From positions 148 to 64,147 of the forward strand of contig CAISZI010000040.1 of assembly GCA_903889905.1 (NCBI GenBank): a DNA stretch of 64,000 bases. The letters are read 5' to 3'. The first letter of the stretch is position 1. Each line of letters starts with the position of its first letter. Below the pieces are notes generated by a model. That model had not been told where the DNA came from, did not search any database, and saw nothing but the letters and a program-made list of their open reading frames with translations. Positions 6,426 through 64,000 of the stretch are shown here, piece after piece. The stretch is from Candidatus Wirthbacteria bacterium. Its GTDB lineage: Bacteria > Patescibacteriota > CG2-30-54-11. Position numbers and translations under genes: made by a program.

Positions 6426-9377
6426 ATGCAAACCCAAAATCAGCCTCAGCTAGCCTCGCAGCCCTCTCTGGAGCCACTTCTGGATGAAGAAGACGAACTG
6501 CAGCCTCTACCTGAAGTCTCTCCCGAAGCCATGCCTGAGGCTGCACCTCAACCCGAGCCTGAATCCCCAAAAAGTGAGGCGGTCCAAGCCTTTGACCAGG
6601 ATCAGGCGGCATTGGTGATGGAATTGATGAAAACAGGCCCCAAAGTTCTCGGTGCCTTCAAAATCGGCAACATGACCTACAAAATTGAAACGTACTATGA
6701 GGCATCCAAGGGAATCTGTTATCGCGTGGGAGCATTAGAGAAAAGCCAAGCAGCTGATGTGGCCGCCTTTATGTCAGAACGTGATTATGCTCACCTGGAT
6801 AAAGTCACGACGATTGAATTGATGCAATTTCCAATGCTGACCCAATTGATCGATCGCAGTGGTGGCGACAACAAAATTAATTTTTTTGTTCTTGATAAAC
6901 AGAAGTTCGCCGAACAGGAAGTGTTGCGTGGTATGGCGAATGCCAACACGGTCAGTATTCCACTCGAAGGGCAAGATAGTGGTGCGGAGATTTCCTACAT
7001 GGTAATGCGCGACGTTGCCAATGTCCGCCGTGCCTGGCTCGTGTTGTTTCCATTCAAAATTTCGAGCGGCGAAACGATAGTTGATAACAAGCAGCAATAT
7101 ACCGAAACAGTTGACAATGGAGACCGTGATTTGCATCGGTTTGTGGCGCAACAGCTTACTGAGCTAGTGCAAAAAGAACACGATAATCCCAAACAGGGTA
7201 AGAAATATACCAAGGCCATGCAAGCGTATTTGAGTAAGAGAAAAAACAGGCAACAATTTTTGCGTGAAGTGGCGCTGGAGTTACGTGGTCATGGCCATGG
7301 CGCGAGTAAAAAGGAAGAGTTGGATGTTCATCGTGAATACTTAAATCACGCATCCATGGATGAGCTCAAAGATATCTGCGGACTGATGTACACTGCCGCG
7401 ATACAGGACAAATCCATCAAGGCTTATGAAGACCGCGTCCGTACCCTGCAACAGCCAGAAATCCCTGTATCCGCGCCAGAAATGGCTGCGACAGGTTCAG
7501 GTGGTCTGGTGGATGCACTCAGATTGAAATTAATGAAACAAAGACTAGCCAAACCTTCGCCTGCGATTGACTCGACAGAGATAACACCTTTGCAACAGCA
7601 GCGTGCCGTTCAGAAGGAATCGTTAGCAAATTACGACAACTCCAGGGTGGTGGATGCAATGTCCGCTCAGCTTAGGTCAAAACCTGATCCAAAGCTAAAC
7701 GTTGTTCCGGATCTATTGGAAGCGTCAGCAGTGTTGTCGACTGAAGCAAGTGTTCAACCCATTACCGAGAGTAAGCAAGTTGGTGAAATGCAAGTCGATG
7801 CAGCGCCAGAAAAAGAACCGAAAACCATGACAGGGGCAGACACGGTCCAGGAACAAAGGTCATCAGCCGAACTGGAACACGATTTGGCGAAATTACTGAC
7901 TTCGGACAAAATTGAAAACATTGAATGGATCACTGATGTTATGACGAAACTGCTCAAATACCCCAACAAAGGCGTCGATCGTTCTCAACCACCCGATAGT
8001 CCGGAACAGTTGGCGGCCAAATTGCACTGTATCCAGCAGCATAACGCACAGGGCGAAGTTTCGTTGGCGCAGCTGGCGATAGACGCCGAGGAGTTTATCA
8101 AAAATAAAGTGGAGGGCCATGCATCTATGCCTTTTGCTTTGAAGTGGTATATCGATGAACGATATATGAAATTGTATGTCCTCGATTATCAACTGATGCG
8201 TGAGCGGGAGATTGCCAGTGAACCGCAATTTGAACAAGTTGACGATAAATTGTTACCGATCGACTACAAAAAAGATAGAAGTAAAACCCACAAAGAGCTA
8301 TTAAATTGGTGGGATGCAGATTGGATTAAAGAAATGGATGGTGCAGCTGTGTGGGCTAATTCATTATCTCAAAGAGTATCCTCAACGAGTCACAGTGAGG
8401 GTGAAACAAATTGGTTTATACAAAATGGCAGCAAAAGTGTATTTGAAGCAGATACACATAATAATTTGTTTATCTTAGATATGCAGAGTGAAGAATTTCT
8501 CAAAAATCTTCAGGATCATCAAGATTATCAACATGAGCAATCATTGGGTAAACAAATGACGGTCGAAGCTGTGCTCTGCGATTCTTGTAATGGCGCAATC
8601 CGTTTGAACTCCCGGTATTGTATGCTGGAAAAACCAAATGAGAATCAAGTGTTTCACTATTTTTTTATCATCAAAAAAGAGGATGGAAGCAACTGCGCGG
8701 CCAATGTCAGCTTGACGCTTGAGCACGGGAAGGTGGTATATAACAAAGTAAATAGTATGGGTGAGGGCTATATTGATCCTAGTAGAGTTGCAAATCCAGA
8801 ATTGTTTTTTACATCAGATGCTGCTTTGAGAGATTTAGATAGAGAGGATCTCAAAACACAAAAAGACGTTTTATTAACAAAACAAGAAATACAATTAATC
8901 GACAATGACAATAATTTAGACGCCACCCAACGTGAAGAACTAAGGCACAATTATTTGACTCGTGATACATCCAATCAGGTCTGCATCAAGGTGCAGGATT
9001 TGCTGTCGGAACATGGAGTGTCTGTCACCCGGCATAAATCAAAGAAAAAAGCTCAAACGCAGATGGCATTCAGTCATGCGGTGGGAAATCTAGGGGCAAG
9101 CTACCAGTTGGTGCCTGTGCGTGAGGACGAATCCATTGCAATTTTGGATCTCAAAGATGGCGAAACCAAGCCTTTTTATTTTGTCAAAGAATCCACCGGT
9201 GCGTCCAAGGACTTTGAAATCTTTACTGTCTGGCTCAACCGTGACGGCCCGATAGTCAGAGTGTGTGAAGGTCTGCAAGACCTGGATAACATGATGTTTG
9301 TCTTTGGCAAAAATAATGGCAAGATCTATACAAAAAATAGATTAAACAAAACTTTTTGGGACAGATTTAGCCGTTGA
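6426..9377 (+). CDS. Large orphan protein of 983 aa with no recognisable domain. It has an acidic, Pro-rich N-terminal ~60 aa, an internal CxxC...C element (CDSCNGAIRLNSRYC), and an AT-rich 3' third.
   Basis: Long uninterrupted ORF with its own AT-rich upstream region. No signal peptide or TM segment. The first ATG has no obvious SD. Confidence 0.6.
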   Translation: MQTQNQPQLASQPSLEPLLDEEDELQPLPEVSPEAMPEAAPQPEPESPKSEAVQAFDQDQAALVMELMKTGPKVLGAFKIGNMTYKIETYYEASKGICYRVGALEKSQAADVAAFMSERDYAHLDKVTTIELMQFPMLTQLIDRSGGDNKINFFVLDKQKFAEQEVLRGMANANTVSIPLEGQDSGAEISYMVMRDVANVRRAWLVLFPFKISSGETIVDNKQQYTETVDNGDRDLHRFVAQQLTELVQKEHDNPKQGKKYTKAMQAYLSKRKNRQQFLREVALELRGHGHGASKKEELDVHREYLNHASMDELKDICGLMYTAAIQDKSIKAYEDRVRTLQQPEIPVSAPEMAATGSGGLVDALRLKLMKQRLAKPSPAIDSTEITPLQQQRAVQKESLANYDNSRVVDAMSAQLRSKPDPKLNVVPDLLEASAVLSTEASVQPITESKQVGEMQVDAAPEKEPKTMTGADTVQEQRSSAELEHDLAKLLTSDKIENIEWITDVMTKLLKYPNKGVDRSQPPDSPEQLAAKLHCIQQHNAQGEVSLAQLAIDAEEFIKNKVEGHASMPFALKWYIDERYMKLYVLDYQLMREREIASEPQFEQVDDKLLPIDYKKDRSKTHKELLNWWDADWIKEMDGAAVWANSLSQRVSSTSHSEGETNWFIQNGSKSVFEADTHNNLFILDMQSEEFLKNLQDHQDYQHEQSLGKQMTVEAVLCDSCNGAIRLNSRYCMLEKPNENQVFHYFFIIKKEDGSNCAANVSLTLEHGKVVYNKVNSMGEGYIDPSRVANPELFFTSDAALRDLDREDLKTQKDVLLTKQEIQLIDNDNNLDATQREELRHNYLTRDTSNQVCIKVQDLLSEHGVSVTRHKSKKKAQTQMAFSHAVGNLGASYQLVPVREDESIAILDLKDGETKPFYFVKESTGASKDFEIFTVWLNRDGPIVRVCEGLQDLDNMMFVFGKNNGKIYTKNRLNKTFWDRFSR

Positions 9378-9392
9378 TTAAACAGATTAAAA

Positions 9393-9444
9393 TTGACACT
9401 TTGACTAATTTTGCTTGACAGTCGATCTCCCCATACGCTATATT
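9393..9444 (+). promoter_or_regulatory. Sigma70-like promoter for the carAB leader (tandem TTGACA at 9393 and 9415; TATATT at 9439-9444)
   Basis: TTGACA, 18-nt spacer, TATATT, read directly. Confidence 0.5.
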
Positions 9445-9510
9445 CCCCAAGGGTCAAATTTAGGGAGCATCGATTTGTACCAAACTTGCCAGGCAACTTC
9501 ATGAAAGTCA

Positions 9511-20767: not shown

Positions 20768-23104
20768 ATGTTTCGTCAGAAAGTGATCATCATGGGCGCG
20801 GCGGGGCGAGATTTTCACAACTTCAACGTCTACTTCCGCGACAAGGAAGAATTTGAGGTTGTCGCTTTTACGGCGACGCAGATTCCCAATATTGACGGCC
20901 GCAAATACCCGGCCGAACTGGCGGGTACGCTTTACCCCGATGGCATCGATATTTACCGCGAAGAAGAGCTGTCGCAACTGATCAAACGTTTTGATGCCCG
21001 TACCGTCGTTTTTGCCTATTCGGATGTTAGCCATGAGTACGTCATGCATCGCGTTTCATTGGCCAATGCCGTGGGGGCCAATTTCCTGCTGCTCGGAGTG
21101 AGGGACACCATGATTAAGTCGATCAAACCCGTGATTTCGATCTGTGCCGTGCGCACCGGCAGTGGCAAAAGTCAGACATCGCGTGCGGTGGTTGGTTTTT
21201 TGAAGACGCAAGGCCTCAAGGTTGTGGCCGTGCGCCACCCTATGCCTTATGGCGACCTGGCCAAACAGGCGGTGCAGCGTTTTGCCACTTACGATGACTT
21301 TGCCAAACACGAGTGCACGTTTGAGGAGCGCGAAGAATATGAGCCCTACATTGAGCAGGGATTGGTGATTTATGCCGGTGTGGATTATGGTGCCATTCTG
21401 ACGCAAGCCGAAGCTGAGGCCGATGTGATTGTCTGGGATGGTGGCAACAACGACACACCTTTTTTCGTTCCGGACCTTAATATCGTTGTCGTCGACCCAC
21501 ACCGTCCGGGCCATGAGCTTAAGTATTATCCTGGCGAAACCAACCTGCGCATGGCCGACGTGATTGTGATCAACAAAATGGACAGCGCCCAGCCTGAGGG
21601 CATCGAAACCGTCAAAGCCAACATTGCCAAATACAACAGTCGCGCCCGGGTGATCGAAGCGGATTCGATTATCGACGTAGCTGATCCGACGCTGATTAAC
21701 AATATGCGCGTGCTCGCCATTGAAGATGGTCCAACCGTGACACACGGTGGTATGGGGTATGGTGCCGCCTACATTGCAGCGGAAAAGTTCAAAGCCTGGC
21801 AAATCGTCGATCCGCGGCCATTTGCGGTGGGTTCAATCAAGGCAACCTTTGCCAAATACAGCCACCTCGACAAAGTCCTGCCGGCCATGGGTTATGGCTC
21901 CGCGCAAATGCAGGAACTCGAGGACACGATCAACGCGAGCAATGCCGAAGCGGTTGTAATTGGTACTCCCGTGGATCTGGGCAAGCTGTTGCATATCAAT
22001 AAACCCTATACCCGCGTCACTTACCGTTTGGCGGAACGTGGCGACCTCAAACTTGCCGAGGTTTTACAACCGTTCATTCCTGCCACAACTATCCCAACTG
22101 TTCAAAGTCCCGCTTCAACCATCACCCCAAGGAGTGTCTCCATGCCAGCGACAAACCTTCCCCAGAACTCGGTTCGGCATTTACTCCATTTCAAAGATTA
22201 CACCGGCGCCGAACTGCGCGAGATCCTCGACCTGGCGCACAAAATCAAAGCCAGTCCCAAGGAATACTGGTTTGCTCTTGACCACCAGACGCTGGTCATG
22301 CTGTTTCAAAAGAATTCGACCCGCACCCGCGTCTCCTTTGAAACCGGGCTCACTCAGCTCGGCGGCCACGCCATTTTTCTGGATTGGAAAAATACCCAGC
22401 TGGACAAAGCGAGCCTTCCTGATGAAGCGCGCTGCCTGGCTCGCTATGGCAACATGATCGCCGCGCGGCTCAAAAAGCACAGCGACATCGAGCAGATTGC
22501 CGCCTATAGTCGCGTACCAGTGATCAACATGCTGTGCGAGAAATACCATCCCTGCCAGTCACTCGCCGATTTGCTCACCATCGAAGAACATTTGGGCAAA
22601 CTGGAAGGCAAGAATATTGTCTACACTGGCATTGCCAACAATGTCTCCAACACATTGGTTGACGCCGGCACCAAGCTTGGCGCCAATGTCATCCTGGCCG
22701 TACCCGAAAAAGACCCGGATGCCCTGGACCCCGAACTTGAAGCCGCTGCCATGGCCACTGGTCGCTATCACGAAACCACAGATTTGCTCGAAGTCATGCC
22801 CACAGCCGACGTCGTCTACACCGACACCTGGGTCAATATGGAGCATTTTGACGACCCCAAATTCGCCGCCGAGAAAGCCCGCCGCGAGAAGCTTTTCGCG
22901 CCCTACCAGGTGAGTGCCGCGCTGCTGGAGAAGACCGGAAGCCATGCCCTGATCATGCACGACCTCCCAGCCCACGATGGCTATGAAATCACTCGGGATG
23001 CCATTGAGCACCCCAATTCCATCATCTTCGACCAGGCCGAGAACCGGCTGCATGCCCAGAAGGCAGTCATGGTGTGGTTGCTGCAGAAGAATAAGATGGT
23101 ATAA
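20768..23104 (+). CDS. Fusion protein. The N-terminal ~440 aa are a COG2403-like P-loop NTPase (cyclic 2,3-diphosphoglycerate-synthetase-family 'predicted GTPase'; Walker A AVRTGSGKSQTS, Walker B IVWDGGNND). The C-terminal ~330 aa are an ornithine/putrescine carbamoyltransferase (STRTRVSFE, HPCQ, HDLPA).
   Basis: 778-aa uninterrupted ORF with an AGGAG RBS. OTC motifs are unambiguous. The N-terminal family assignment is by eye. Confidence 0.75.
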   Translation: MFRQKVIIMGAAGRDFHNFNVYFRDKEEFEVVAFTATQIPNIDGRKYPAELAGTLYPDGIDIYREEELSQLIKRFDARTVVFAYSDVSHEYVMHRVSLANAVGANFLLLGVRDTMIKSIKPVISICAVRTGSGKSQTSRAVVGFLKTQGLKVVAVRHPMPYGDLAKQAVQRFATYDDFAKHECTFEEREEYEPYIEQGLVIYAGVDYGAILTQAEAEADVIVWDGGNNDTPFFVPDLNIVVVDPHRPGHELKYYPGETNLRMADVIVINKMDSAQPEGIETVKANIAKYNSRARVIEADSIIDVADPTLINNMRVLAIEDGPTVTHGGMGYGAAYIAAEKFKAWQIVDPRPFAVGSIKATFAKYSHLDKVLPAMGYGSAQMQELEDTINASNAEAVVIGTPVDLGKLLHINKPYTRVTYRLAERGDLKLAEVLQPFIPATTIPTVQSPASTITPRSVSMPATNLPQNSVRHLLHFKDYTGAELREILDLAHKIKASPKEYWFALDHQTLVMLFQKNSTRTRVSFETGLTQLGGHAIFLDWKNTQLDKASLPDEARCLARYGNMIAARLKKHSDIEQIAAYSRVPVINMLCEKYHPCQSLADLLTIEEHLGKLEGKNIVYTGIANNVSNTLVDAGTKLGANVILAVPEKDPDALDPELEAAAMATGRYHETTDLLEVMPTADVVYTDTWVNMEHFDDPKFAAEKARREKLFAPYQVSAALLEKTGSHALIMHDLPAHDGYEITRDAIEHPNSIIFDQAENRLHAQKAVMVWLLQKNKMV
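23018..23104 (+). repeat. Direct repeat, copy 1: the true 3' end of the OTC-fusion gene
   Basis: About 90% identical to 23498-23585 over ~88 bp. The last 40 bp are identical. Confidence 0.8.
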
Positions 23105-23148
23105 TCAATTCTCACCTTGATATCTTATTTTTATAAGTCTGAGAATTT

Positions 23149-23490
23149 ATGTCGGAAATCGGCATTGGTGATTATGGTATTGCTGCCGATGGCGAGTACG
23201 ATCCGGCAGGCGAAATGCATGATTCGAGATCACCAGAAATATGTGTAGGGGAGTTACGATCTCTGAATGAAAGTATGCATAGTTTAGTAACGGAGTTACG
23301 TTATTTATATACGGAGATTGAAGCCTTGCGAGCGCAAGGAAATCTCAATAAACAAGATCAAAGAAAGTTAAAAAGACTCCAAAACGACGCACCAAGCACA
23401 TTAAATGTGCTGGAAAAGAAAAGGAAAAAATTTGCCACGCGACGCCAGTGGTATATTGATCATGATCCGAGTTATGCCGGCTTTAAGTAA
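23149..23490 (+). CDS. Hypothetical small coiled-coil protein of 113 aa in an AT-rich insert
   Basis: ORF between the two copies of the OTC 3'-end repeat. No family recognised. Confidence 0.4.
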   Translation: MSEIGIGDYGIAADGEYDPAGEMHDSRSPEICVGELRSLNESMHSLVTELRYLYTEIEALRAQGNLNKQDQRKLKRLQNDAPSTLNVLEKKRKKFATRRQWYIDHDPSYAGFK

Positions 23491-23497
23491 TCAAACT

Positions 23498-23585
23498 CCT
23501 TCATCTTCCACCAGGCCGAAAACCGCATGCATACTCAGAAGGCATTGCTGGTGTGGTTGCTGCAGAAGAATAAGATGGTATAATC
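23498..23585 (+). repeat. Direct repeat, copy 2: a relic, displaced copy of the OTC 3' end. Still encodes ...IFHQAENRMHTQKALLVWLLQKNKMV*.
   Basis: Alignment to 23018-23104 read directly. Confidence 0.8.
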
Positions 23586-23605
23586 TATAACCTCGCTGCA
23601 ATGCG

Positions 23606-23983
23606 GTGGAATCTATCTATTTTTATCGAGGTTGGAAAATGGCTAAATCGACTGTTGAATTAACTGCTGAGGGTAAATCCCAACAAGCGTTTTTGGATGA
23701 GATCAAACTCGATGAAAATAACGCACACGCAGACATTATAAAGGATATTGATGAATTGATTTTAGAAATTGATACAAAGGGTGAAGTCGAAGCCGATCGG
23801 TACTCAGCAGCTATTAAGAATTTTAATGATTTTTTTGATATTCGTTTGCCTCAAAACTTTGCTATTGATTATGTTCACATTCAAATTCTACTTGATTTAG
23901 TTGAAGCAGAATTGTCGCGCTTGAGTAAAACTGACAGTGAGCCGACTTTGGATCAGGTTGGCGGGCTTGAGGGGCAGGGGTAG
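23606..23983 (+). CDS. Hypothetical small acidic protein (likely start at MAKSTVEL, 23639)
   Basis: ORF in the AT-rich islet. No family recognised. Confidence 0.35.
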   Translation: MESIYFYRGWKMAKSTVELTAEGKSQQAFLDEIKLDENNAHADIIKDIDELILEIDTKGEVEADRYSAAIKNFNDFFDIRLPQNFAIDYVHIQILLDLVEAELSRLSKTDSEPTLDQVGGLEGQG

Positions 23984-24162
23984 TGAGGACGTCGCTGGCG
24001 GATCCAGATTTAGCCAAATAATCTGAAATTATTAACTCAATTTTCATGGAGGTGCAAACTGGACGAGATTGATGATAGTGGTTACCAAGGAGAGACAGAT
24101 CGACCGAATGCCTCTCTGACGGTGGTTCAAATTGCGGCAAAAGTATTAGCTGATCAGCAGCA

Positions 24163-24453
24163 ATGACTGCTCATCCTGTAGATTTAGGAGAATCTCCGGC
24201 ACTGGAGCAACAAGAGGACAAGAGCAATTCAATTTTGGCATTGCAGCAGAAAGAATTGGCAGCAAAGTATCAAGAGAATATTTTATTAGCTGAGTACAAT
24301 GCCCTAAAATCTAGACCATCCACTGCACTTGCAGATATTGATGCCGCCTTCGATCGTTTAGTTGCAGCATCCACGCGAGTAAATAATTTGGAGATAGACT
24401 TGCACAAATTATGCAAGGGGCCAGGCTCAGATGAAAATGGTTCATTTAGATAA
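24163..24453 (+). CDS. Hypothetical small coiled-coil protein of 96 aa
   Basis: ORF in the AT-rich islet. No family recognised. Confidence 0.35.
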   Translation: MTAHPVDLGESPALEQQEDKSNSILALQQKELAAKYQENILLAEYNALKSRPSTALADIDAAFDRLVAASTRVNNLEIDLHKLCKGPGSDENGSFR

Positions 24454-24713
24454 TCAAAAATGAACATATTGTAATTTCATCAAAGAATGCTGAATTGACT
24501 AGCTGAAGTGGGAATAAAACCTTGACCGCTCACATTATTTCTGTTAGTTTGTTGGCGGTCCGAAAATGATGTTTAATGCTTATTAACCATGCTCAAACTG
24601 ATTCGTCTTTGCCGTCGCATGAAGCCCGAACTCGAGCTGTGATTACTATTCCCCTTTACCATTGGTAACAGGGGATTTTTTTTGGCCATTTATCAACCAT
24701 TCTGGAGGGCAGT

Positions 24714-45205: not shown

Positions 45206-46030
45206 ATGCGACCCACGCTGGATAAGAGCACGACGCCGATTGTTACCATCACCACTGACTTTGGCGAGCATTTTGCCACGGCGCAGATGGAAGGGGTTCT
45301 GCTTGGCATCAACCCAACTGTCAAAATCGTCAACATTACTGACCATGTAAGGCCTTTCAATATTCTGGAAGGTAGCTTTATTCTGATGCAAACCAGTCGC
45401 TTTTTTCCCAGCGGCACCATACACGTCGCCATTGTCGATCCTGGTGTTGGCTCCAAGCGGCGCGGACTGGTAATCAAAACACATAAATCGTACTTTATCG
45501 GACCAGATAATGGCTTGTTTATGCCGATTATCAAAAATCAGGTGTTTGAGTGGGCGATCGCGATCGATGAAGAACATTTTCCCAATAAATCCAACACTTT
45601 TCATGGCCGCGACGTGTTTATCAAAATCGCCGGGTTTCTTTCTCGTGGCGACGATGTGTCCAAACTAGGTGACAAAATTGATCTGGCCGCATTGGTTCCC
45701 ATGGACCTGCATCTGGACCAGATTGTGCATATCGATGGCTTTGGCAATATCAAAATTAACCGTGCCGCGCTCACTGTCCCGTTTGGAACTGTCGTCCCTG
45801 TCGTCCACAAGGAACGCGAATTTACCGCACGCTATGAACGTACCTTTAGCGATGTTGGTATTGGGGAATGGGTACTGGCGGTGGGCAGCCATGACGTACT
45901 GGAACTGGCCATGAATCAGGGCAATGCGTCCAAGGTGCTGGGTGCCCGAGTGGGCGATGTGGTCTCCGTGACGGAACCAGACAATGTTTCCAGCCAGACT
46001 GGACCAACGTTGTTTGAAATCAATAATTAA
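45206..46030 (+). CDS. S-adenosyl-L-methionine hydroxide adenosyltransferase (SAM hydrolase, DUF62)
   Basis: VTITTDFG and [10 protein letters not shown] motifs of the fluorinase/chlorinase-like SAM hydrolase family. Confidence 0.75.
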
Positions 46031-48033
46031 CGCCGCATTTTGGTGATCTGATCGCGAATCATGGCGGCTTCTTCGAATTCCAGACGCTGGGCTGCGGCCT
46101 GAATGCGGCGTTCCATTTCTTTGATCAGCTTCAGTTTGTCGGTGGGTGAAAGATTGGCGACATCGATTTCTGGTGCTGCGGCAATCGGTTTGGGTTTGGC
46201 ACCTGTGTTGTCAAACATGTCTTCACGAATCGCTTTCATGATGGTTTGCGGTGTGATGCCGTTGTCTTTGTTGTATTGCACCTGAATCGCACGACGGCGG
46301 TTGGTTTCACGGATAGCAGCGTCCATGGATTTGGTCATGCGGCCAGCATACATGATGACTTTGCCCTCAACGTGACGGGCGGCGCGGCCAATTGTCTGGA
46401 TCAGGGCCGTTTCGCTGCGCAGGTAACTTTCCTTGTCCGCGTCCAGAATCGCGACCAGTGTGACTTCTGGGAGGTCCAGACCCTCTCGCAGCAGGTTGAT
46501 ACCTACCAGTACATCATAAACACCGAGCCGCAGGTCACGTAGAATGTCGACACGGTCCATGGTTTTGACGTCCGAGTGCAGATAGTTGGTTTTAATCCCA
46601 TTCTCGAGCAAATAGTCAGCCAGGTCTTCGGCCATTTTTTTGGTCAGGGTGGTGACGAGTGCGCGCTGGCCTTTTTGGACGCGGATTCTGACTTCCTTGA
46701 CCAGATCCTGGATCTGGTTTTCCACTGGACGGACTTCCAGCTCCGGATCGATCAGACCGGTCGGGCGCACCAGCTGTTCCACCGTTTGTTTGGAAAATTC
46801 CGCTTCATATTTGCTGGGAGTGGCCGAGACAAAAACGCACTGTTTGATGCGTTGCCAGAATTCACTGCCTTTGAGTGGCCGATTATCGCGTGCCGACGGC
46901 AGGCGGAAACCGTAGCGGATGAGCGTGTTTTTGCGCGATTTGTCGCCTTCGTACATGGCACCAATCTGCGGGATGGTCATGTGCGATTCGTCAATAAACA
47001 GCAGAAAATCCTGGGGAAAATAATCCAGCAGCACAAAAGGCGGATCACCGGGTTTGCGTTTATCAAAATGCCAGGAGTAATTTTCGATGCCGGGGCAATA
47101 ACCAGTCTCCTGCAGCATCTCAATGTCAAAGCGGGTGCGTTGTTCCAGCCTTTCGGCTTCCAGCAGAAACCCGTTGCCGCGCAGCTCTGGCAAGTAGGCA
47201 TTTAACTCTTTTTCGATGCTGACAATGGCGTCCTTGAGGCCTTCGCCAACGGCCACAAAGTGCGTCGCCGGGAAGATTTCGATTTCACCCAGTTCTTCCA
47301 GAATTTCACCGGTAAGTGGATCAAAAGTGCGGATTTTGTCGACATCATCGCCAAACAGTTCGAGCTTGATAGCGATTTCACCATAGGAGGGATAAACATC
47401 AATAACGTCGCCGTGGACGCGAAATTTACCCCGGCTGAAATCAAAGTCGTTGCGCTCAAACTGCATATTCGCAAGCCTTGTCAGTACTTCACGGCGGCCA
47501 ATGAACTGGCCTTTTTTGAGGTTCAGCGCGATTTTGAAATACTCGGTGGGTGAACCCAAACCATAAATGCAACTAATCGACGAAATAATGATGGTGTCGC
47601 GCCTGCTGAGCACACTCATGGTGGCCGAATGACGCAGACGCTCGATTTCTTCGTTGATCGAGGCGTCTTTTTCGATGTAGGTATCGGAAGTTGGGATGTA
47701 GGCTTCTGGCTGATAGTAATCGTAATAGCTGACAAAATATTCCACGGCGTTTTTGGGGAAAAATTCCTTGAATTCGGAATAAAGTTGAGCTGCCAGGGTT
47801 TTGTTGTGTGCCAGGATCAAGGCCGGGCGTTGTGTCTCGGCAATCACTTGGGCCATGGTGTAGGTTTTGCCACTACCAGTAACCCCGAGCAGGGTTTGTC
47901 GGTCAATGCCGGATTTCAGTCCCTCGACAAGTTTGGCAATGGCCTGGGGTTGGTCGCCTTTGGGAGAGTATGCGGTGGTTAGTTCAAAACGATTTTTTTT
48001 TTGACGTGCAAGCAGTTGTTCGGGCAAAATCAT
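46027..48033 (-). CDS. uvrB: Excinuclease ABC subunit B
   Basis: GVTGSGKT Walker A, helicase motifs and a C-terminal UVR domain. Confidence 0.9.
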
Positions 48034-58399: not shown

Positions 58400-59776
58400 A
58401 TGCAGTTTATCAAAAACAAAATTTCCTCTTATATTCGTTTCCTGGCTGACAATCAGCAGGTTTTTCTATCGTTGCTGTTGATTTTGCTTGTTCCTGGCAT
58501 TCTGGTGTTCAATACGGTGTTTGTGGTCAAGTCCATGGACGACAATATGAATTACGAACTGCGCCTCAAAGCCGAAATGGCTGGCAGTATCGTGGCACGC
58601 TACTCGTCGGATTTGCTTGGCGATCCAACCCAGCTGCAAGCCAAAATCAAACTTACCGTCGATGAAAGTCTGCACAGTTCCACTCGCAAAGTGACGATCA
58701 TGGTGCCTGAGGGTGAGAATTTTCAGGTGCTGGCCTCATCGGATCAAAGTGAAATTAGCCAAATTCGGCCGCAGCTGCAGTACACCGTTGCCTGGCATCA
58801 ACATGCCACCATTGCTCAACTTGTCCAAACGGTTCAAAATCACCAGACCGAGCGTCTCTGGCAGGTGGTGACGCCTATTGCCACGCCCACAGGTTCAAAG
58901 CTCGGTTTGGTCGAAATCCTGGTTTCTACTGCCGACATGGATGCCCGTACTCAAACTGTGCTGGTCAATTCGGTGTTGGTACTGGTGGCTTCCATTGGTC
59001 TGGTGCTGCTGTTGATTGCCAACAATGCCCGTTTGTTTCAATACGCTTTGCTGTTCCACAAACTGCAGGAAGTGGACAAAATGAAGGATAACTTCATCTC
59101 GATCGCTTCCCACGAACTCAAAACTCCCGTGACCGCTGCCAAAGGCTTCCTGAGTCTGGTGGAACAGGAAAAGCAAGTCCTGCCAGCCGAAATCCAGTCG
59201 GACATCAATAAAGCCAATATGAGCCTGGAACGGCTTTCTGACCTGGTCAACGACCTGCTCAATGTCAGCCGCATCGAACAAAAACGGCTTGCCATTGATC
59301 CGGTGCCGACGGACATCCGGACTGTGGTGGGTGAGGTTTTTGAAGATTTGTCCGGCTCAGCCCAAAAAAAAGGACTGACGATTGAGTATCACCCGTTCAC
59401 AGGTGAATTGCCTCCGGTCTTGATCGACCCCGCCAAATTTCGTCAAATCATGGTTAATCTGCTCACCAACGCCATCAAATACACCATTTCCGGCAAAGTG
59501 GAAGTGAATATCATTTTTGAAGATTTGGGCAAAGTAGCCGTCAGTGTCAAGGATACCGGTATAGGCATGTCTGCAGGCGATATGGAAAAGTTGTTTACCC
59601 AGTTCTATCGCGTCCGCAATCGCAAAGCTCGCGACATTGTCGGTACGGGCCTCGGACTCTGGATCACCAAACAGCTGACCGAGATGATGGATGGCAAAAT
59701 TCTGGTTGAAAGCATCGAAGATGTCGGTTCCCGTTTCACGGTCGTCTTTTCCGTCATCCCGACCAAGAAGAAATAA
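58400..59776 (+). CDS. Sensor histidine kinase (two TM helices, HisKA H-box SHELKTP, HATPase_c)
   Basis: H, N, G1 and G2 boxes read directly. Confidence 0.8.
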   Translation: MQFIKNKISSYIRFLADNQQVFLSLLLILLVPGILVFNTVFVVKSMDDNMNYELRLKAEMAGSIVARYSSDLLGDPTQLQAKIKLTVDESLHSSTRKVTIMVPEGENFQVLASSDQSEISQIRPQLQYTVAWHQHATIAQLVQTVQNHQTERLWQVVTPIATPTGSKLGLVEILVSTADMDARTQTVLVNSVLVLVASIGLVLLLIANNARLFQYALLFHKLQEVDKMKDNFISIASHELKTPVTAAKGFLSLVEQEKQVLPAEIQSDINKANMSLERLSDLVNDLLNVSRIEQKRLAIDPVPTDIRTVVGEVFEDLSGSAQKKGLTIEYHPFTGELPPVLIDPAKFRQIMVNLLTNAIKYTISGKVEVNIIFEDLGKVAVSVKDTGIGMSAGDMEKLFTQFYRVRNRKARDIVGTGLGLWITKQLTEMMDGKILVESIEDVGSRFTVVFSVIPTKKK

Positions 59777-59791
59777 GTGAGGAGAAATTTA

Positions 59792-60259
59792 GTGTTTAAT
59801 AGCATCACCAAAATGACAAAAAAAAAGAGCAGTTTATCAACGCTTGCCAACCACAAGACAATCAGCGATGCCCGTCGCATGCTGCCACTTGCGGAGCTGA
59901 AGATCCTGATGGTGGAAGACGACCCGTTTTTGCGCGACCTTTACCAGCGTATTTTTGACCGTGCCAGCATCAAGGTAGAACTGGCGCGCGACGGTGAAGA
60001 GGGTTTTGACGTGGTCAAAGCCCAGAAACCCGATCTGATGCTGCTCGACGTGATGTTGCCCGGCATTACTGGTCCCGAACTATTGAGCAAAATGGCCAAA
60101 GAACTGGAATATGTCCCCATGGTGATCATGCTCTCCGACCTGGATCAGATTGGCGTGAAAGACAAATGCATCAACCTGGGTGCCAAAGCATTTATTTCCA
60201 AAAACGACGTGAGTGGCCCGGAGTTGCTACGGAAGGTTGAAGAAATCTTGAAAGCGTAG
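59792..60259 (+). CDS. Single-domain CheY-like response regulator (start uncertain: GTG 59792 or ATG 59879)
   Basis: LMVEDD ... LLDVMLPG ... receiver motifs. No output domain. Confidence 0.75.
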   Translation: MFNSITKMTKKKSSLSTLANHKTISDARRMLPLAELKILMVEDDPFLRDLYQRIFDRASIKVELARDGEEGFDVVKAQKPDLMLLDVMLPGITGPELLSKMAKELEYVPMVIMLSDLDQIGVKDKCINLGAKAFISKNDVSGPELLRKVEEILKA

Positions 60260-60509
60260 GCTTGACCATACCTTAAACGAGGCTTAAAATTAATACCTGA
60301 ACTCATCAGGCGAAAAAAGCTGATTTCACCCTAATACCAAAACCCGTTTCCGCAGGTTAGCCCTCAAAAAGCAAAAACAGAAATGTTTAAACCATGGAAA
60401 CGGATTTTTTTATGAGGGAAAATCATTAAGTATATTGTTCGACAAGCAAGTAAAGTAACTAGACGTCACATTTAATAATACAAGGAGTGACGAGAAAATA
60501 TTGAGCGTA

Positions 60510-60659
60510 ATGGTGACATCGCGCAAGCCACGGTTTGTTTACACAGGCAAAGGTGACTACGCCGCCACGTCGCGGGCGTCGTTTAAGAGGGTGAAGGCAC
60601 AGGCGATAGAGGATGTGCGGTGGCGGATTGAGGAGATGGAGAAAAGAGTTAATTCGTAA
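60510..60659 (+). CDS. 49-aa ORF duplicating the C-terminal tail of the downstream 340-aa protein (MVTSRKPRFVYTGKGDYAATSRASFKRVKAQAIEDVRWRIEEMEKRVNS)
   Basis: About 88% nucleotide identity to 61555-61682. An AAGGAG lies ~25 nt upstream. Confidence 0.3.
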   Translation: MVTSRKPRFVYTGKGDYAATSRASFKRVKAQAIEDVRWRIEEMEKRVNS

Positions 60660-60671
60660 TTGGAGTTTGAC

Positions 60672-61682
60672 ATGGTTGAAATTTCCAAAGAAATAATGGC
60701 AGATGCTGTCAGAATATTGAACTTCCTCGAAAACCCGGCTTACTTTTGCGACAAAAGGACACACCTGTTGATGGGAAATGAGTTGATGCTGAAAATGTTT
60801 GGATTAAATGAAAAAATGGCCAGTCACATTCTTGGTAAAAACTGGATTGACGTACTTTTGGATCAGAATTTCGGTGTTCGATCGATAATCCCGCCAGCTG
60901 AGTGGGAAAAATTAGCTTTGCAACAATTGGTCAAAATTCGTCAGCTTTACCCCAAAGAAAGCATTCTCGAATTTGAACGAGAAATGTCAAAATATCAAGA
61001 GTTTGATTACTTGTGGCAAAAGAGTAAAGAGTTGGTTTCGGCAAACCCAATTTTTGAACGTGGCGTGATGAAGTTTGATTTGGCTGGATCTACCAAAACA
61101 TTTATCCTCTTGGCTTATCATTATCCAACTCAGGATTATTTGATTGTAGAGTATTTGCCGGCAGATAAGGGCACAACCGATTTCTTGGATTTGATGAGAA
61201 AAGAAAGAGAACCAACAGAAATTTCAGATCATTTTGTTACAGAAATGATACGAAATTACAGTTTGATCAGGAAGTTGAGGGAATCACCGATAATCCTGAT
61301 GAATTGTGTTAAAAAAGAAGCGGACTGTTCAGGCAATGACTTGATTAATGCTCTACGAACTATAGTGGACAAGGTCATTGGCGGTTTTGAACCCAATACC
61401 AATTTTTCAATTCGATCATCTGTTCGTCTCAAATACGAAATCCTCCGCATGATGGCCTACGAAGGTGCCACCGACGAGCAGATCATGTGGGACCTGGGCT
61501 TCGAGCCTGACAGCGACTTCTGGGCCAAGCGCAATGGCGACATTGCGCGCAAACCACGGTTCCCCTACACGGGCAAAGGCGATTACGCTGCCACGTCACG
61601 GGCGTCGTTTAAGAGGTTGAAGGCTCAGGCGATTGAGGATGTGAGGTGGCGGATCGAGGAGATGGAGAAAAGAACTAATTAA
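60672..61682 (+). CDS. Hypothetical protein with a possible C-terminal LuxR/GerE-type HTH (LKYEILRMMAYEGATDEQIMWDLGF). The N-terminal region has no family assignment. Located in an AT-rich block.
   Basis: ORF present. HTH guess by eye. The C-terminal 44 aa are repeated upstream. Confidence 0.45.
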   Translation: MVEISKEIMADAVRILNFLENPAYFCDKRTHLLMGNELMLKMFGLNEKMASHILGKNWIDVLLDQNFGVRSIIPPAEWEKLALQQLVKIRQLYPKESILEFEREMSKYQEFDYLWQKSKELVSANPIFERGVMKFDLAGSTKTFILLAYHYPTQDYLIVEYLPADKGTTDFLDLMRKEREPTEISDHFVTEMIRNYSLIRKLRESPIILMNCVKKEADCSGNDLINALRTIVDKVIGGFEPNTNFSIRSSVRLKYEILRMMAYEGATDEQIMWDLGFEPDSDFWAKRNGDIARKPRFPYTGKGDYAATSRASFKRLKAQAIEDVRWRIEEMEKRTN

Positions 61683-61730: not shown

Positions 61731-63638
61731 TTAGTTGTCGCCTGGAAATATAAATCCCGCCTGCACAAGTTGTCTCAAATTAGTGAGATTCACAATGCGT
61801 TGCGAAAAATGTTTGCGAGTGGTTCTGTTTTGCATGAAATCACTTAGAAGATAAGTATATCCGGTTTGATTTGGCTTTTTGCGCTCTTGACGAAAGGGTT
61901 TGTTGAGATAGGTAAGCATATCCTTGACAGGCATGTCGCCATTGGCGAGGCAAGCTTTGACCCGGTCAGCACTTGTCTTGTACTTAACAATACATAGATG
62001 TTCACTTCGCTGGACAGCAAAATCAGGGTCATAAAAAAGTGCAATCATACCCAGAAGGTGATCGGTATGCATATTTGGAGTGATGTTTTGATTTGGGGAT
62101 GGATAAAGTTGTTGATTAATTTCAGCCAGTGGATTTAATAGCCCTGCTTCAGGGATCTGATCGGGCGAGATTGCACTTCCATTCGTCACATAATCGCGGA
62201 TGGTAGGTTTATTCACCTCAAGCGCAATATAGGTTGCCGGAGATTGTCCAAGCTTACATTTGTAAAAAGCGGCATCTCGACCCAGTAGTGAGGACAAGAC
62301 GCTTTGATTGTCATCGCAAGACGACAAGACAGCTAATATCCCAGGGTGCTTATCACTTATTGGCACAGAATGACGGAAAACCGTTTTGGGTTGATGCGTA
62401 TGGAGCGAAATATGATCGTTAATTATGCGAAATGTGTTTGGGTCTGTTTTCAGAACCAGGACAGACCTCGGGGCGTCGTCCCATGCCTCCCGTTGCTGGC
62501 GCGTGGATGGCATGTGCCAATGTGCTGCATATTGAACGGATGTTCGTTGCTGACCTGTTGGTTTTAACCAGTTCTGTACAAAAACACCAATGGGATCCTG
62601 GGCGTCAGACATCTGGTCAAAGAGCCGGTCACTACTGTTCAGGATACTAAAAGAAAGGGCGTCATCCGCGCGCAGAGGGAGTGGATGGTCATTGTCGGCG
62701 GCATGAGCATCAAGTTTAAAGTTTTTTATCTGGGTCCCAAGTCGTATACCACTGGCTTCGAGTCTGCTGATGATCAGGTCCGACATCTCTCGCCAACCAA
62801 GGAAAGTCGCCAAATTGGCAGCAATACGACCGCGCAGGAGTTTAACGTCTTTCATTTTGCCATCCAGATTTTCGCAGATATCAGCAATTTTAATAAAAAA
62901 GGCACGCCAATGCTCAGGTGACTTGGTTGCCGATTCAAACACGTGGAGCAGAGAGTAAACCACGTGCAGTATTTTTTCCTGATCCTTTTCGCCAAGGGTT
63001 CCGCTGGTTTCTTCGATTAAATCAGCTATGACCCGATACAGGGGATGTTTTTGGAGCATCTCATGGTTCAGGTTGGTTGGGAGATCGGGCTCGGTAACCG
63101 CAGCAATCACTTCTGTGAGCGTTTGGGCGCGGGCGGTATTGCCAAACAGTGTTTGGATCTGGTTGATCCAGGCGGCCGCTTTTAACCCGTCACCCAGATC
63201 CACATCTTCAACCACGTCATGCAGCAGGGCAGCGGCAATCGTGATAGCATCTAAATTGGCCTGCATCAAATGTTGGGCAATAGCGATGGGGTGCATAATA
63301 TAAAGTTCACCATTTTTGCGTCGCCTGGCTTTGAGGTCATGGTTCGATTGATGCGCAAAAGTGGCCAGATCGAGGGCTCGAATGATAAAGGCTGCGTCCG
63401 ATGGATGATATCTCTGTCTGATCTCATGGCTGATTGTAATGTAGGTGTTTTCAAAAAGTCGCCACGCATTATCGCAGCTCATGTTATTGACCAAATCAGG
63501 CCCTGAATCGGTTGGATGCGCATAGTCTCTGAAGCGATGGATGTCATCGATTTGAGCCTCAGGCCCGATGTCAAAAAAAATACTTGGCATTTTTGGCTCT
63601 AATGGTTTAAAGCGATCCATCACGCGTTTTTTGAACAA
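61731..63638 (-). CDS. Rel/SpoT-type HD (ppGpp-hydrolase-like) domain protein with an ~90-aa N-extension and an ~360-aa C-terminal region of unknown function
   Basis: RALDLATFAHQSNHDLKARRRKNGELYIMHPIAIAQHL...AALLHDVVEDV...KIADICENL matches the SpoT/RelA hydrolase HD signature. The rest is unrecognised. Confidence 0.65.
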   Translation of the reverse strand: MFKKRVMDRFKPLEPKMPSIFFDIGPEAQIDDIHRFRDYAHPTDSGPDLVNNMSCDNAWRLFENTYITISHEIRQRYHPSDAAFIIRALDLATFAHQSNHDLKARRRKNGELYIMHPIAIAQHLMQANLDAITIAAALLHDVVEDVDLGDGLKAAAWINQIQTLFGNTARAQTLTEVIAAVTEPDLPTNLNHEMLQKHPLYRVIADLIEETSGTLGEKDQEKILHVVYSLLHVFESATKSPEHWRAFFIKIADICENLDGKMKDVKLLRGRIAANLATFLGWREMSDLIISRLEASGIRLGTQIKNFKLDAHAADNDHPLPLRADDALSFSILNSSDRLFDQMSDAQDPIGVFVQNWLKPTGQQRTSVQYAAHWHMPSTRQQREAWDDAPRSVLVLKTDPNTFRIINDHISLHTHQPKTVFRHSVPISDKHPGILAVLSSCDDNQSVLSSLLGRDAAFYKCKLGQSPATYIALEVNKPTIRDYVTNGSAISPDQIPEAGLLNPLAEINQQLYPSPNQNITPNMHTDHLLGMIALFYDPDFAVQRSEHLCIVKYKTSADRVKACLANGDMPVKDMLTYLNKPFRQERKKPNQTGYTYLLSDFMQNRTTRKHFSQRIVNLTNLRQLVQAGFIFPGDN

Positions 63639-64000
63639 AGCGGTCAGCTCTTCCGGTCAAATCAACCATGCGACTTCTAAAGGTTTTAAATTTCATGTTG
63701 GGAGCAAGTGATCTTAATCTAGTAACAGGTGACAGACATAGATCTGGATGATATTGCGATAGCGTTGACTTGGCTCGTTCCTCAAATCCTTCGATTTTGA
63801 GGAGTTCTTGCACTTCTTCAACCGTCATGTCGGCGCTTAAAAATGTGATCCATGGTAAGGTCTCTCCCGTTTTGATTTTTTGTAACCATCTGACCGGAAC
63901 AACGGGATTCTCACCGCGTTGAAAGGGGAGGTCTTCGTAGTAGCAAAAAGACACCATGCTCTGGATAAAATCGAGCCAGGTGGGGTCTGTATCATCCAGT
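63607..64000 (-). CDS. Hypothetical protein, 5'-partial. The ORF stays open past the window end and overlaps the start of the HD-domain gene by 32 nt.
   Basis: In-frame codons continue without a stop from 63957 to 64000. Confidence 0.35.
   Translation of the reverse strand, partial: LDDTDPTWLDFIQSMVSFCYYEDLPFQRGENPVVPVRWLQKIKTGETLPWITFLSADMTVEEVQELLKIEGFEERAKSTLSQYHPDLCLSPVTRLRSLAPNMKFKTFRSRMVDLTGRADRFVQKTRDGSL

Follow-up and report, generated by a model that had tools for sequence, protein, structure and literature searches.

In a 64,000-nucleotide stretch of a Candidatus Wirthbacteria genome (assembly GCA_903889905.1, contig CAISZI010000040.1, positions 148 to 64,147; hereafter the window), the gene closest to the right-hand end whose full length is present, P0001, encodes a protein with the HD hydrolase domain found in RelA/SpoT homolog (RSH) enzymes. 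P0001 is probably a hydrolase-only relative of these enzymes that is lineage-specific and occurs here as one of two tandemly duplicated paralogs, rather than as a member of a toxin-antitoxin or defense pair. It belongs to the same protein family as its upstream neighbor, P0135, both retain intact catalytic residues, and no toxin or defense partner accompanies them in the window. Judged by its relatives, a protein of the P0001 type looks like a lineage-specific housekeeping enzyme, and the duplicated family coexists in this genome with a normal bifunctional Rel.

P0001 is a real, intact gene. Its minus-strand open reading frame (ORF) runs uninterrupted for 635 codons (61731..63638) in the ORF list, from a TTG start at 63638 to a stop at 61731-61733, and its translation contains the motifs RKNGELYIMHP, AALLHDVVEDV and KIADICENL. 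Pfam HD_4 matches it with 35 bits against a cut-off of 27.2, over amino acids 92-168 only. The alarmone-hydrolase HD signature that a first-pass annotation had read from the sequence is confirmed by this match and by invariant catalytic residues that align with those of long RSHs, and the ORF that carries it is genuine.

Homology to the RSH enzymes extends well beyond the Pfam domain. A profile-profile comparison (hhalign) of the P0001 family with 26 long RSHs yielded a single match (probability 99.7, E 1.2e-26) pairing family residues 44-293 with RSH residues 17-206. In the numbering of the long Rel encoded in the window, R42, H51, H75, D76, E79, D80, K139, D142 and N146 correspond to R91, H100, H124, D125, E128, D129, K234, D237 and N241 of P0001, respectively. 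The helices that follow the HD core align as well, the long-RSH pattern IAxETLxIYAPLAHRLG...ELEDLA facing LRGRIAAxLAEWxGWYxMRSxII in the family, and a helical insertion of roughly 40-60 residues (~166-210), specific to the family, separates GVTE from the NLxxLF helix. The best sequence match in the PDB, by phmmer, is the N-terminal Rel fragment 1vj7 from S. equisimilis (E 1.5e-11), whereas small hydrolases of the Mesh1 type reach E values of 1e-4 to 1e-5 (2.6e-5 for Mesh1 itself). The top NCBIfam match is TIGR00691 (spoT_relA), all spoT_relA matches being far below threshold. The HD domain shows the hydrolase-domain fold of Rel and Mesh1; the two values recorded for each match in the HD-domain comparison were 16.3 and 340 for full-length SpoT (7qpr), 15.8 and 220 for the Rel N-terminal domain 8acu, 15.3 and 243 for Rel 6yxa, and 14.1-14.9 and 159-168 for the small hydrolases 7qoe, 7qoc and 5vxa. 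The family would represent a hydrolase-only branch of the RSH superfamily, one that lies closer to long Rel/SpoT proteins than to small alarmone hydrolases, as 1vj7 outranks Mesh1, TIGR00691 heads the NCBIfam list and the post-core helices align. These comparisons support the assignment of P0001 to the RSH superfamily as a protein of the hydrolase type, separate from the canonical Rel.

Nine active-site positions (R91, K92, H100, H124, D125, E128, D129, D237 and N241) are present in both P0001 and P0135 and are invariant or nearly invariant in an alignment of 26 family members, from which all conservation counts given here derive (numbering of the 619-amino acid form of P0001). The corresponding residues of Rel and Mesh1 enzymes bind Mn2+ and perform 3'-pyrophosphate hydrolysis. 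The active site looks competent in both window copies, and the likeliest activity of the N-terminal HD domain is Mn2+-dependent 3'-pyrophosphate hydrolysis of (p)ppGpp or of an alarmone close to it. The earlier suggestion of a (pp)pGpp- or (pp)pApp-degrading protein stands insofar as P0001 is a hydrolase-type RSH protein with every defining active-site residue; the antitoxin or defense role that had been attached to it is not supported.

Beyond the HD region, P0001 continues through a linker predicted with low confidence into a family-specific C-terminal module (Table 1). Since the profile alignment covers family residues 44-293, the region that matches nothing spans ~325 amino acids; the first-pass annotation had rightly recognized an unmatched tail and had put its length at ~450 amino acids. 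The predicted layout of this tail comprises an alpha/beta part (~351-475), two helices around IPEAGLF and YEPN, and a small beta-hairpin-plus-helix domain (~530-600). TLPxPE and GRxR join IPEAGLF and YEPN as its conserved motifs. No match to the tail was found in Pfam, NCBIfam, PADLOC or PHROGs, and the best Foldseek match in the PDB (E 0.09) fell among scattered nucleotidyltransferases, RelA and ubiquitin-like folds. An ordinary TGS/ACT regulatory region, which would have made P0001 a degenerate second Rel, is not what the sequence displays, as hhalign, hidden Markov model (HMM) searches and Pfam all failed to return a significant match. The modeled structure nevertheless hints at descent from a synthetase-plus-TGS arrangement, and the tail may hold a very degenerate synthetase/TGS-like remnant, the structural matches being weak; it may also adopt a fold without a solved relative. 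A synthetase remnant, should the tail prove to be one, would probably be inactive: the family alignment contains no conserved acidic or basic set equivalent to the catalytic motifs of synthetases. The conserved ~270-residue tail most likely serves to regulate the activity of the hydrolase.

The gene immediately upstream had been listed as an unknown ORF running off the window and translationally coupled to P0001 through a 32-nucleotide overlap. It does run off the window, since its frame stays open to the end and no stop codon interrupts it as far as base 63999. Far from being an unknown gene, it encodes the C terminus of P0135, a 607-amino acid protein whose residues 478-607 are reproduced at 130 of 130 positions (BLASTP). 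P0135 aligns with P0001 over its full length (28% identity, E 4e-45), and an HMM of the family tail run over the window matched the ORFs of these two proteins only (E 1.3e-23 for the P0135 fragment). The upstream ORF being the 3' end of the gene for a full-length paralog, the locus is therefore a tandem duplication and not an enzyme accompanied by an unrelated partner. The two proteins share indels and pair in a neighbor-joining tree, in which both form long branches, so that attraction between them is possible. As to the overlap, it depends on the choice of start codon. The upstream ORF ends with a TAA at 63609-63607, and only the TTG at 63638 (635 amino acids) gives the 32-nucleotide overlap; an in-frame GTG at 63623 also overlaps the upstream stop, the ATG at 63620 reduces the overlap to 14 nucleotides, and the ATG at 63590, which yields the 619-amino acid public product, leaves a gap of 16 nucleotides after it. 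Purine-rich stretches precede two of these starts (GGAAGAG, 9 nucleotides upstream of 63638, and AGAG before 63590), and N termini vary across the family. Overlap and translational coupling of the two genes are thus possible, not established, and the start codon is not settled.

The family is small. An exhaustive HMMER search with target residues 160-634 against 1.84 billion representatives (50%-identity clusters) retrieved 29 relatives, 18 of them with E <1e-10 and nearly all of them 580-650 amino acids long. One member, P0123 (locus L100, 137-2848), reaches 903 amino acids through a C-terminal extension of ~280 residues that is unique in the family. Conserved positions are spread over the full length of the protein, tail included: R91, H100, H124, D125, E128, D129, W141, D237, N241, K250, R253, G254, G265 and P480 are invariant, and H80, K92, L214, S224, P225, K234, W239, L252, A261, W266, P376, P462, E481 and Y520 nearly so. 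The family has so far been found in candidate-phyla bacteria (Candidate Phyla Radiation, CPR, or Wirthbacteria-like), among them Candidatus Gottesmanbacteria RIFCSPHIGHO2_02_FULL_40_13, a CPR organism with a 632-amino acid member (locus L002, 8110..10008). A word-indexed homolog search with P0001 alone recovered only the protein itself and one relative, and with the family profile the same type of search brought up an excess of ordinary long RSHs, without adding members. A metagenome scan that used the HD motif only, as a pattern, returned mostly ordinary Rel loci, with L017 as the sole family member; L039, whose matching ORF has 762 amino acids, was rejected, each non-family locus carrying an ORF with a synthetase (SYNTH) domain. 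The ORF at the L088 match has 937 amino acids.

Ten other family loci (nine in one count) were available for comparison with that of the window. Each holds a single copy, never a tandem, and has no SYNTH-domain ORF nearby; the neighbors are housekeeping genes that vary from locus to locus, with no conserved partner. Tandem duplication was accordingly rejected as a trait of the family, tandem copies being confined to the window locus, and the conservation of a gene pair across relatives, proposed earlier as a check, did not materialize. In L017, on a metagenome contig (8102-11605), recJ lies directly upstream of the family gene and is itself preceded by genes for RmuC, a DHH protein and IF-2. 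In L002 (6550-10008), a 438-amino acid gene resembling phosphoribosyl pyrophosphate (PRPP) synthetases and phosphoribosyltransferases lies upstream and an SLT transglycosylase gene downstream. Neighbors elsewhere include NDK, thymidylate synthase (ThyA) and DHFR (L097), ribosomal protein L31 (L100), PhoU/PHO4 (L101), a sortase (L102) and YceG (L103). The rel genes of Firmicutes lie in a recJ-apt-relA neighborhood, and it is possible, by analogy, that the recJ of L017 and the phosphoribosyltransferase-like gene of L002 recall this order.

How the family arose can be stated with less assurance than what it is. Descent from a long RSH, with synthetase and TGS parts that have degenerated past recognition, is a reading to which we give somewhat less than an even chance. 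A more specific version, in which the family constitutes an undescribed RSH lineage of CPR and Wirthbacteria-like bacteria, ~600 amino acids long, hydrolase-only and long-Rel-derived, with the synthetase and TGS domains remodeled into a regulatory module, is put forward tentatively and is on the unlikely side. Were it correct, this protein would possibly be the only alarmone-metabolizing enzyme in many reduced, host-dependent cells, which would degrade alarmones without making them. Several observations weigh against long-RSH ancestry or against other parts of the proposal as a whole. Sub-profiles of the tail compared by hhalign with SYNTH, TGS and the whole C-terminal half of RSHs gave E values of 0.2-0.8, which are not significant, and HMM searches of the tail against SYNTH and TGS produced scattered, mutually inconsistent matches in no steady register. 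The rel-like gene order is confined to 2 of about 10 loci. P0001 has a cysteine at the nearly invariant tryptophan position 239, and the low GC content at third codon positions (GC3) and long branches of P0001 and P0135 could reflect relaxed selection. With regard to substrate choice, NADPH is another compound on which Mesh1-type HD domains can act, and (p)ppApp is used by some relatives.

The strongest competing explanation is that the HD domain has been fused to an unrelated domain with a new fold and acts on another phosphorylated nucleotide or cofactor, such as NADPH, (p)ppApp or some metabolite peculiar to CPR bacteria, with the tail recognizing the substrate or a partner. The lack of any sequence signal linking the tail to SYNTH or TGS would fit such a protein, as would the family-specific insertion near the substrate side of the HD domain and the nucleotide-metabolism neighbors mentioned above (NDK, ThyA, DHFR and the PRPP-synthetase-like gene). 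Retention of the helices that long RSHs specifically carry after the HD core argues against it, and so does an active site made up of the residues of (p)ppGpp hydrolases, so that we regard this explanation as rather unlikely.

The first-pass annotation had suggested a toxSAS/antitoxin pair or another nucleotide-signal defense module. Under that explanation, which now appears very unlikely, P0001 would act together with the adjacent gene as a type IV antitoxin, a counter-defense hydrolase or a defense effector. In its favor, toxSAS toxins do have small alarmone hydrolases as antitoxins, such hydrolases also occur in phages (PMC7229694), PHROGs families of phage phosphohydrolases match the HD motif, and the GC and GC3 of the block lie below those of its flanks. 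The adjacent gene, however, is neither a toxin nor a sensor; it encodes a paralog with an intact HD site of its own. A SYNTH HMM run over the window detected only the long Rel 11 kb away, the DNA upstream of P0135 lying outside the window, and found nothing beside the family genes in the ten other loci, where each stands singly amid housekeeping genes and lacks a conserved partner. No PADLOC defense model matched P0001, the P0135 fragment or the 340-amino acid protein encoded on the other side of P0001 at E values up to 1. In the literature, hydrolase antitoxins are PbcSpo-type proteins with a single domain, encoded beside toxSAS genes (PMC7229694). This description misfits the locus, since the family proteins are ~600 amino acids long with a tail, P0001 being three times the size of the known hydrolase antitoxins, and no toxSAS gene stands beside them in the window. 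A false lead is thereby removed, and the locus should be left out of any tally of toxSAS-like or defense modules.

It is least probable that P0001 and P0135 are decaying, functionless duplicates of recent origin in a low-GC, fast-evolving patch: their GC3 of 0.40-0.47, below that of core genes, the long branches of both, the W239-to-Cys change in P0001 and the remnant repeat flanking the neighboring 340-amino acid ORF would suit such a fate, but both frames are intact over >600 codons, and long-term purifying selection is indicated because both copies have kept the catalytic and most family-invariant residues at a mutual identity of only 28%.

Set against the known RSH groups, the hydrolase-only family that we propose resembles several of them in part. 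Among long RSHs, the closest likeness is to the SpoT of Acinetobacter baumannii (7qpr), whose synthetase domain is inactive. The family differs from all long enzymes in having no RelA_SpoT (SYNTH), TGS, AH/RIS or ACT domain detectable by Pfam, NCBIfam or profile comparison; neither a SYNTH domain after the HD domain nor a TGS with ACT/RRM, the marks of a long RSH, was found, and the insertion of about 40-60 amino acids in the HD domain and the tail motifs are private to it. Small alarmone hydrolases (Mesh1, RelH, PbcSpo/ATfaRel, PaSpo and the (p)ppApp hydrolase) consist of a single HD domain of ~140-200 amino acids and are often encoded next to toxSAS genes or in phages (PMC7229694). In contrast, the family proteins are ~600 amino acids long (619 in P0001, compared with the 140-200 of an HD domain alone), have a conserved tail and no synthetase neighbor, and are closer in sequence to long RSHs. 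As a divergent extra RSH copy beside a canonical Rel, P0001 is reminiscent of RshB, RshC, RshD and 'divSpo' (Atkinson et al. 2011, PMC3153485). Unlike RshB-D, which keep both HD and SYNTH, the family keeps only the HD domain in recognizable form; it may already be included in 'divSpo' or in one of the 13 subfamilies that Jimmy et al. 2020 distinguish among long RSHs. In our literature search, no paper brought the Candidate Phyla Radiation together with small alarmone hydrolases, the few mentioning ppGpp and Patescibacteria did not seem relevant from title or abstract, and none of those searched describes how ultra-small candidate-phyla bacteria deal with stringent-response alarmones. With this family, the RSH superfamily would gain a long-format member that is hydrolase-only, in addition to the long enzymes, small synthetases and small hydrolases; the family would also provide a concrete, testable protein for alarmone handling in ultra-small candidate-phyla bacteria. 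We consider it useful for the study of RSH evolution and CPR physiology, while being neither mechanistically surprising nor, as yet, linked to a phenotype.

Table 1. Coordinates of the P0001/P0135 locus and of other features of the window
Feature	Coordinates	Strand	Remarks
P0001 gene	61731..63590	-	619 amino acids + stop; public start ATG 63590; copy in public protein collection, from an NCBI/ENA contig of 192,201 bp, 100% identical
Rel/SpoT-type HD region	62712..63461	-	Residues 44-293, including insertion and post-core helices of long RSHs
HD...ED motif, H124 D125 .. E128 D129	63204..63221	-	Catalytic dyad plus metal ligands; no variation in 26/26 family members
D237-N241 of KIADxxxN	62868..62882	-	Fourth metal ligand and substrate-binding Asn; aligns with KLADRLHN of long RSHs
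Low-confidence linker	62541..62735	-	Residues 286-350; pLDDT <50; includes stretch found only in P0001 and P0135
Family-specific C-terminal module	61734..62540	-	Residues 351-619; no fold match
3' end of P0135 (residues 478-607 + stop)	63607..64000	-	Remainder of gene beyond window
Canonical long Rel, 724 amino acids	48049..50223	-	HD_4, RelA_SpoT, TGS, RelA_AH_RIS and ACT_4 all above cut-offs
Orphan-looking 983-amino acid ORF	6426..9377		Low-GC patch
Orphan-looking small ORFs	23149..23490 and 23606..23983		Low-GC patch

The canonical long Rel recognized in the first reading of the window has the complete domain set of such enzymes above Pfam cut-offs (Table 1). The region around P0001 had also been described as an AT-rich block, which is correct with respect to its flanks and to the window mean (GC 0.504, standard deviation 0.03 in 1-kb windows): GC and GC3 are 0.47 and 0.47 in P0001, 0.44 and 0.40 in the P0135 fragment, and 0.425 and 0.49 in the 340-amino acid ORF, compared with 0.49-0.52 and 0.59-0.64 in the genes for Rel, UvrB and a histidine kinase. 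The block is not unique, as two other low-GC patches (0.40-0.46; ~7500-9500 and 23000-24500) hold orphan-looking ORFs; low-GC patches with lineage-specific genes thus recur in the window, and the HD locus is not special in this respect.

The 340-amino acid protein (60660..61682) gave only a sub-threshold match to an MmyB-like ligand-binding domain, and neither it nor the P0135 fragment matched anything in NCBIfam, PADLOC or PHROGs. Its ORF is bracketed by a 135-nucleotide direct repeat (60520-60654 and 61546-61680; 87% identical, spacing 1026 nucleotides), and its final ~45 codons recur just upstream of its start as the tail of a 52-amino acid ORF (60501..60659). This repeat, which falls where the GC content of the region is lowest, seems to be what is left of a truncated tandem copy. 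Directly before the low-GC block, the histidine kinase gene (58400..59776) abuts that of a response regulator (59777..60259), both with a normal GC3 of ~0.6. Scans of the entire 64-kb window for tRNA genes and for Rfam families at the gathering threshold were empty. An ORF of 778 amino acids (20768-23104) may be a gene fusion, its C-terminal half resembling ornithine/aspartate carbamoyltransferases by eye (STRTR, HPCQ) and being preceded by an N-terminal half of ~440 amino acids. The closest named relative of the UvrB encoded in the window (46027-48033) is that of Candidatus Wirthbacteria CG2_30_54_11 (69% identity), and two metagenome proteins are 71-72% identical to it.

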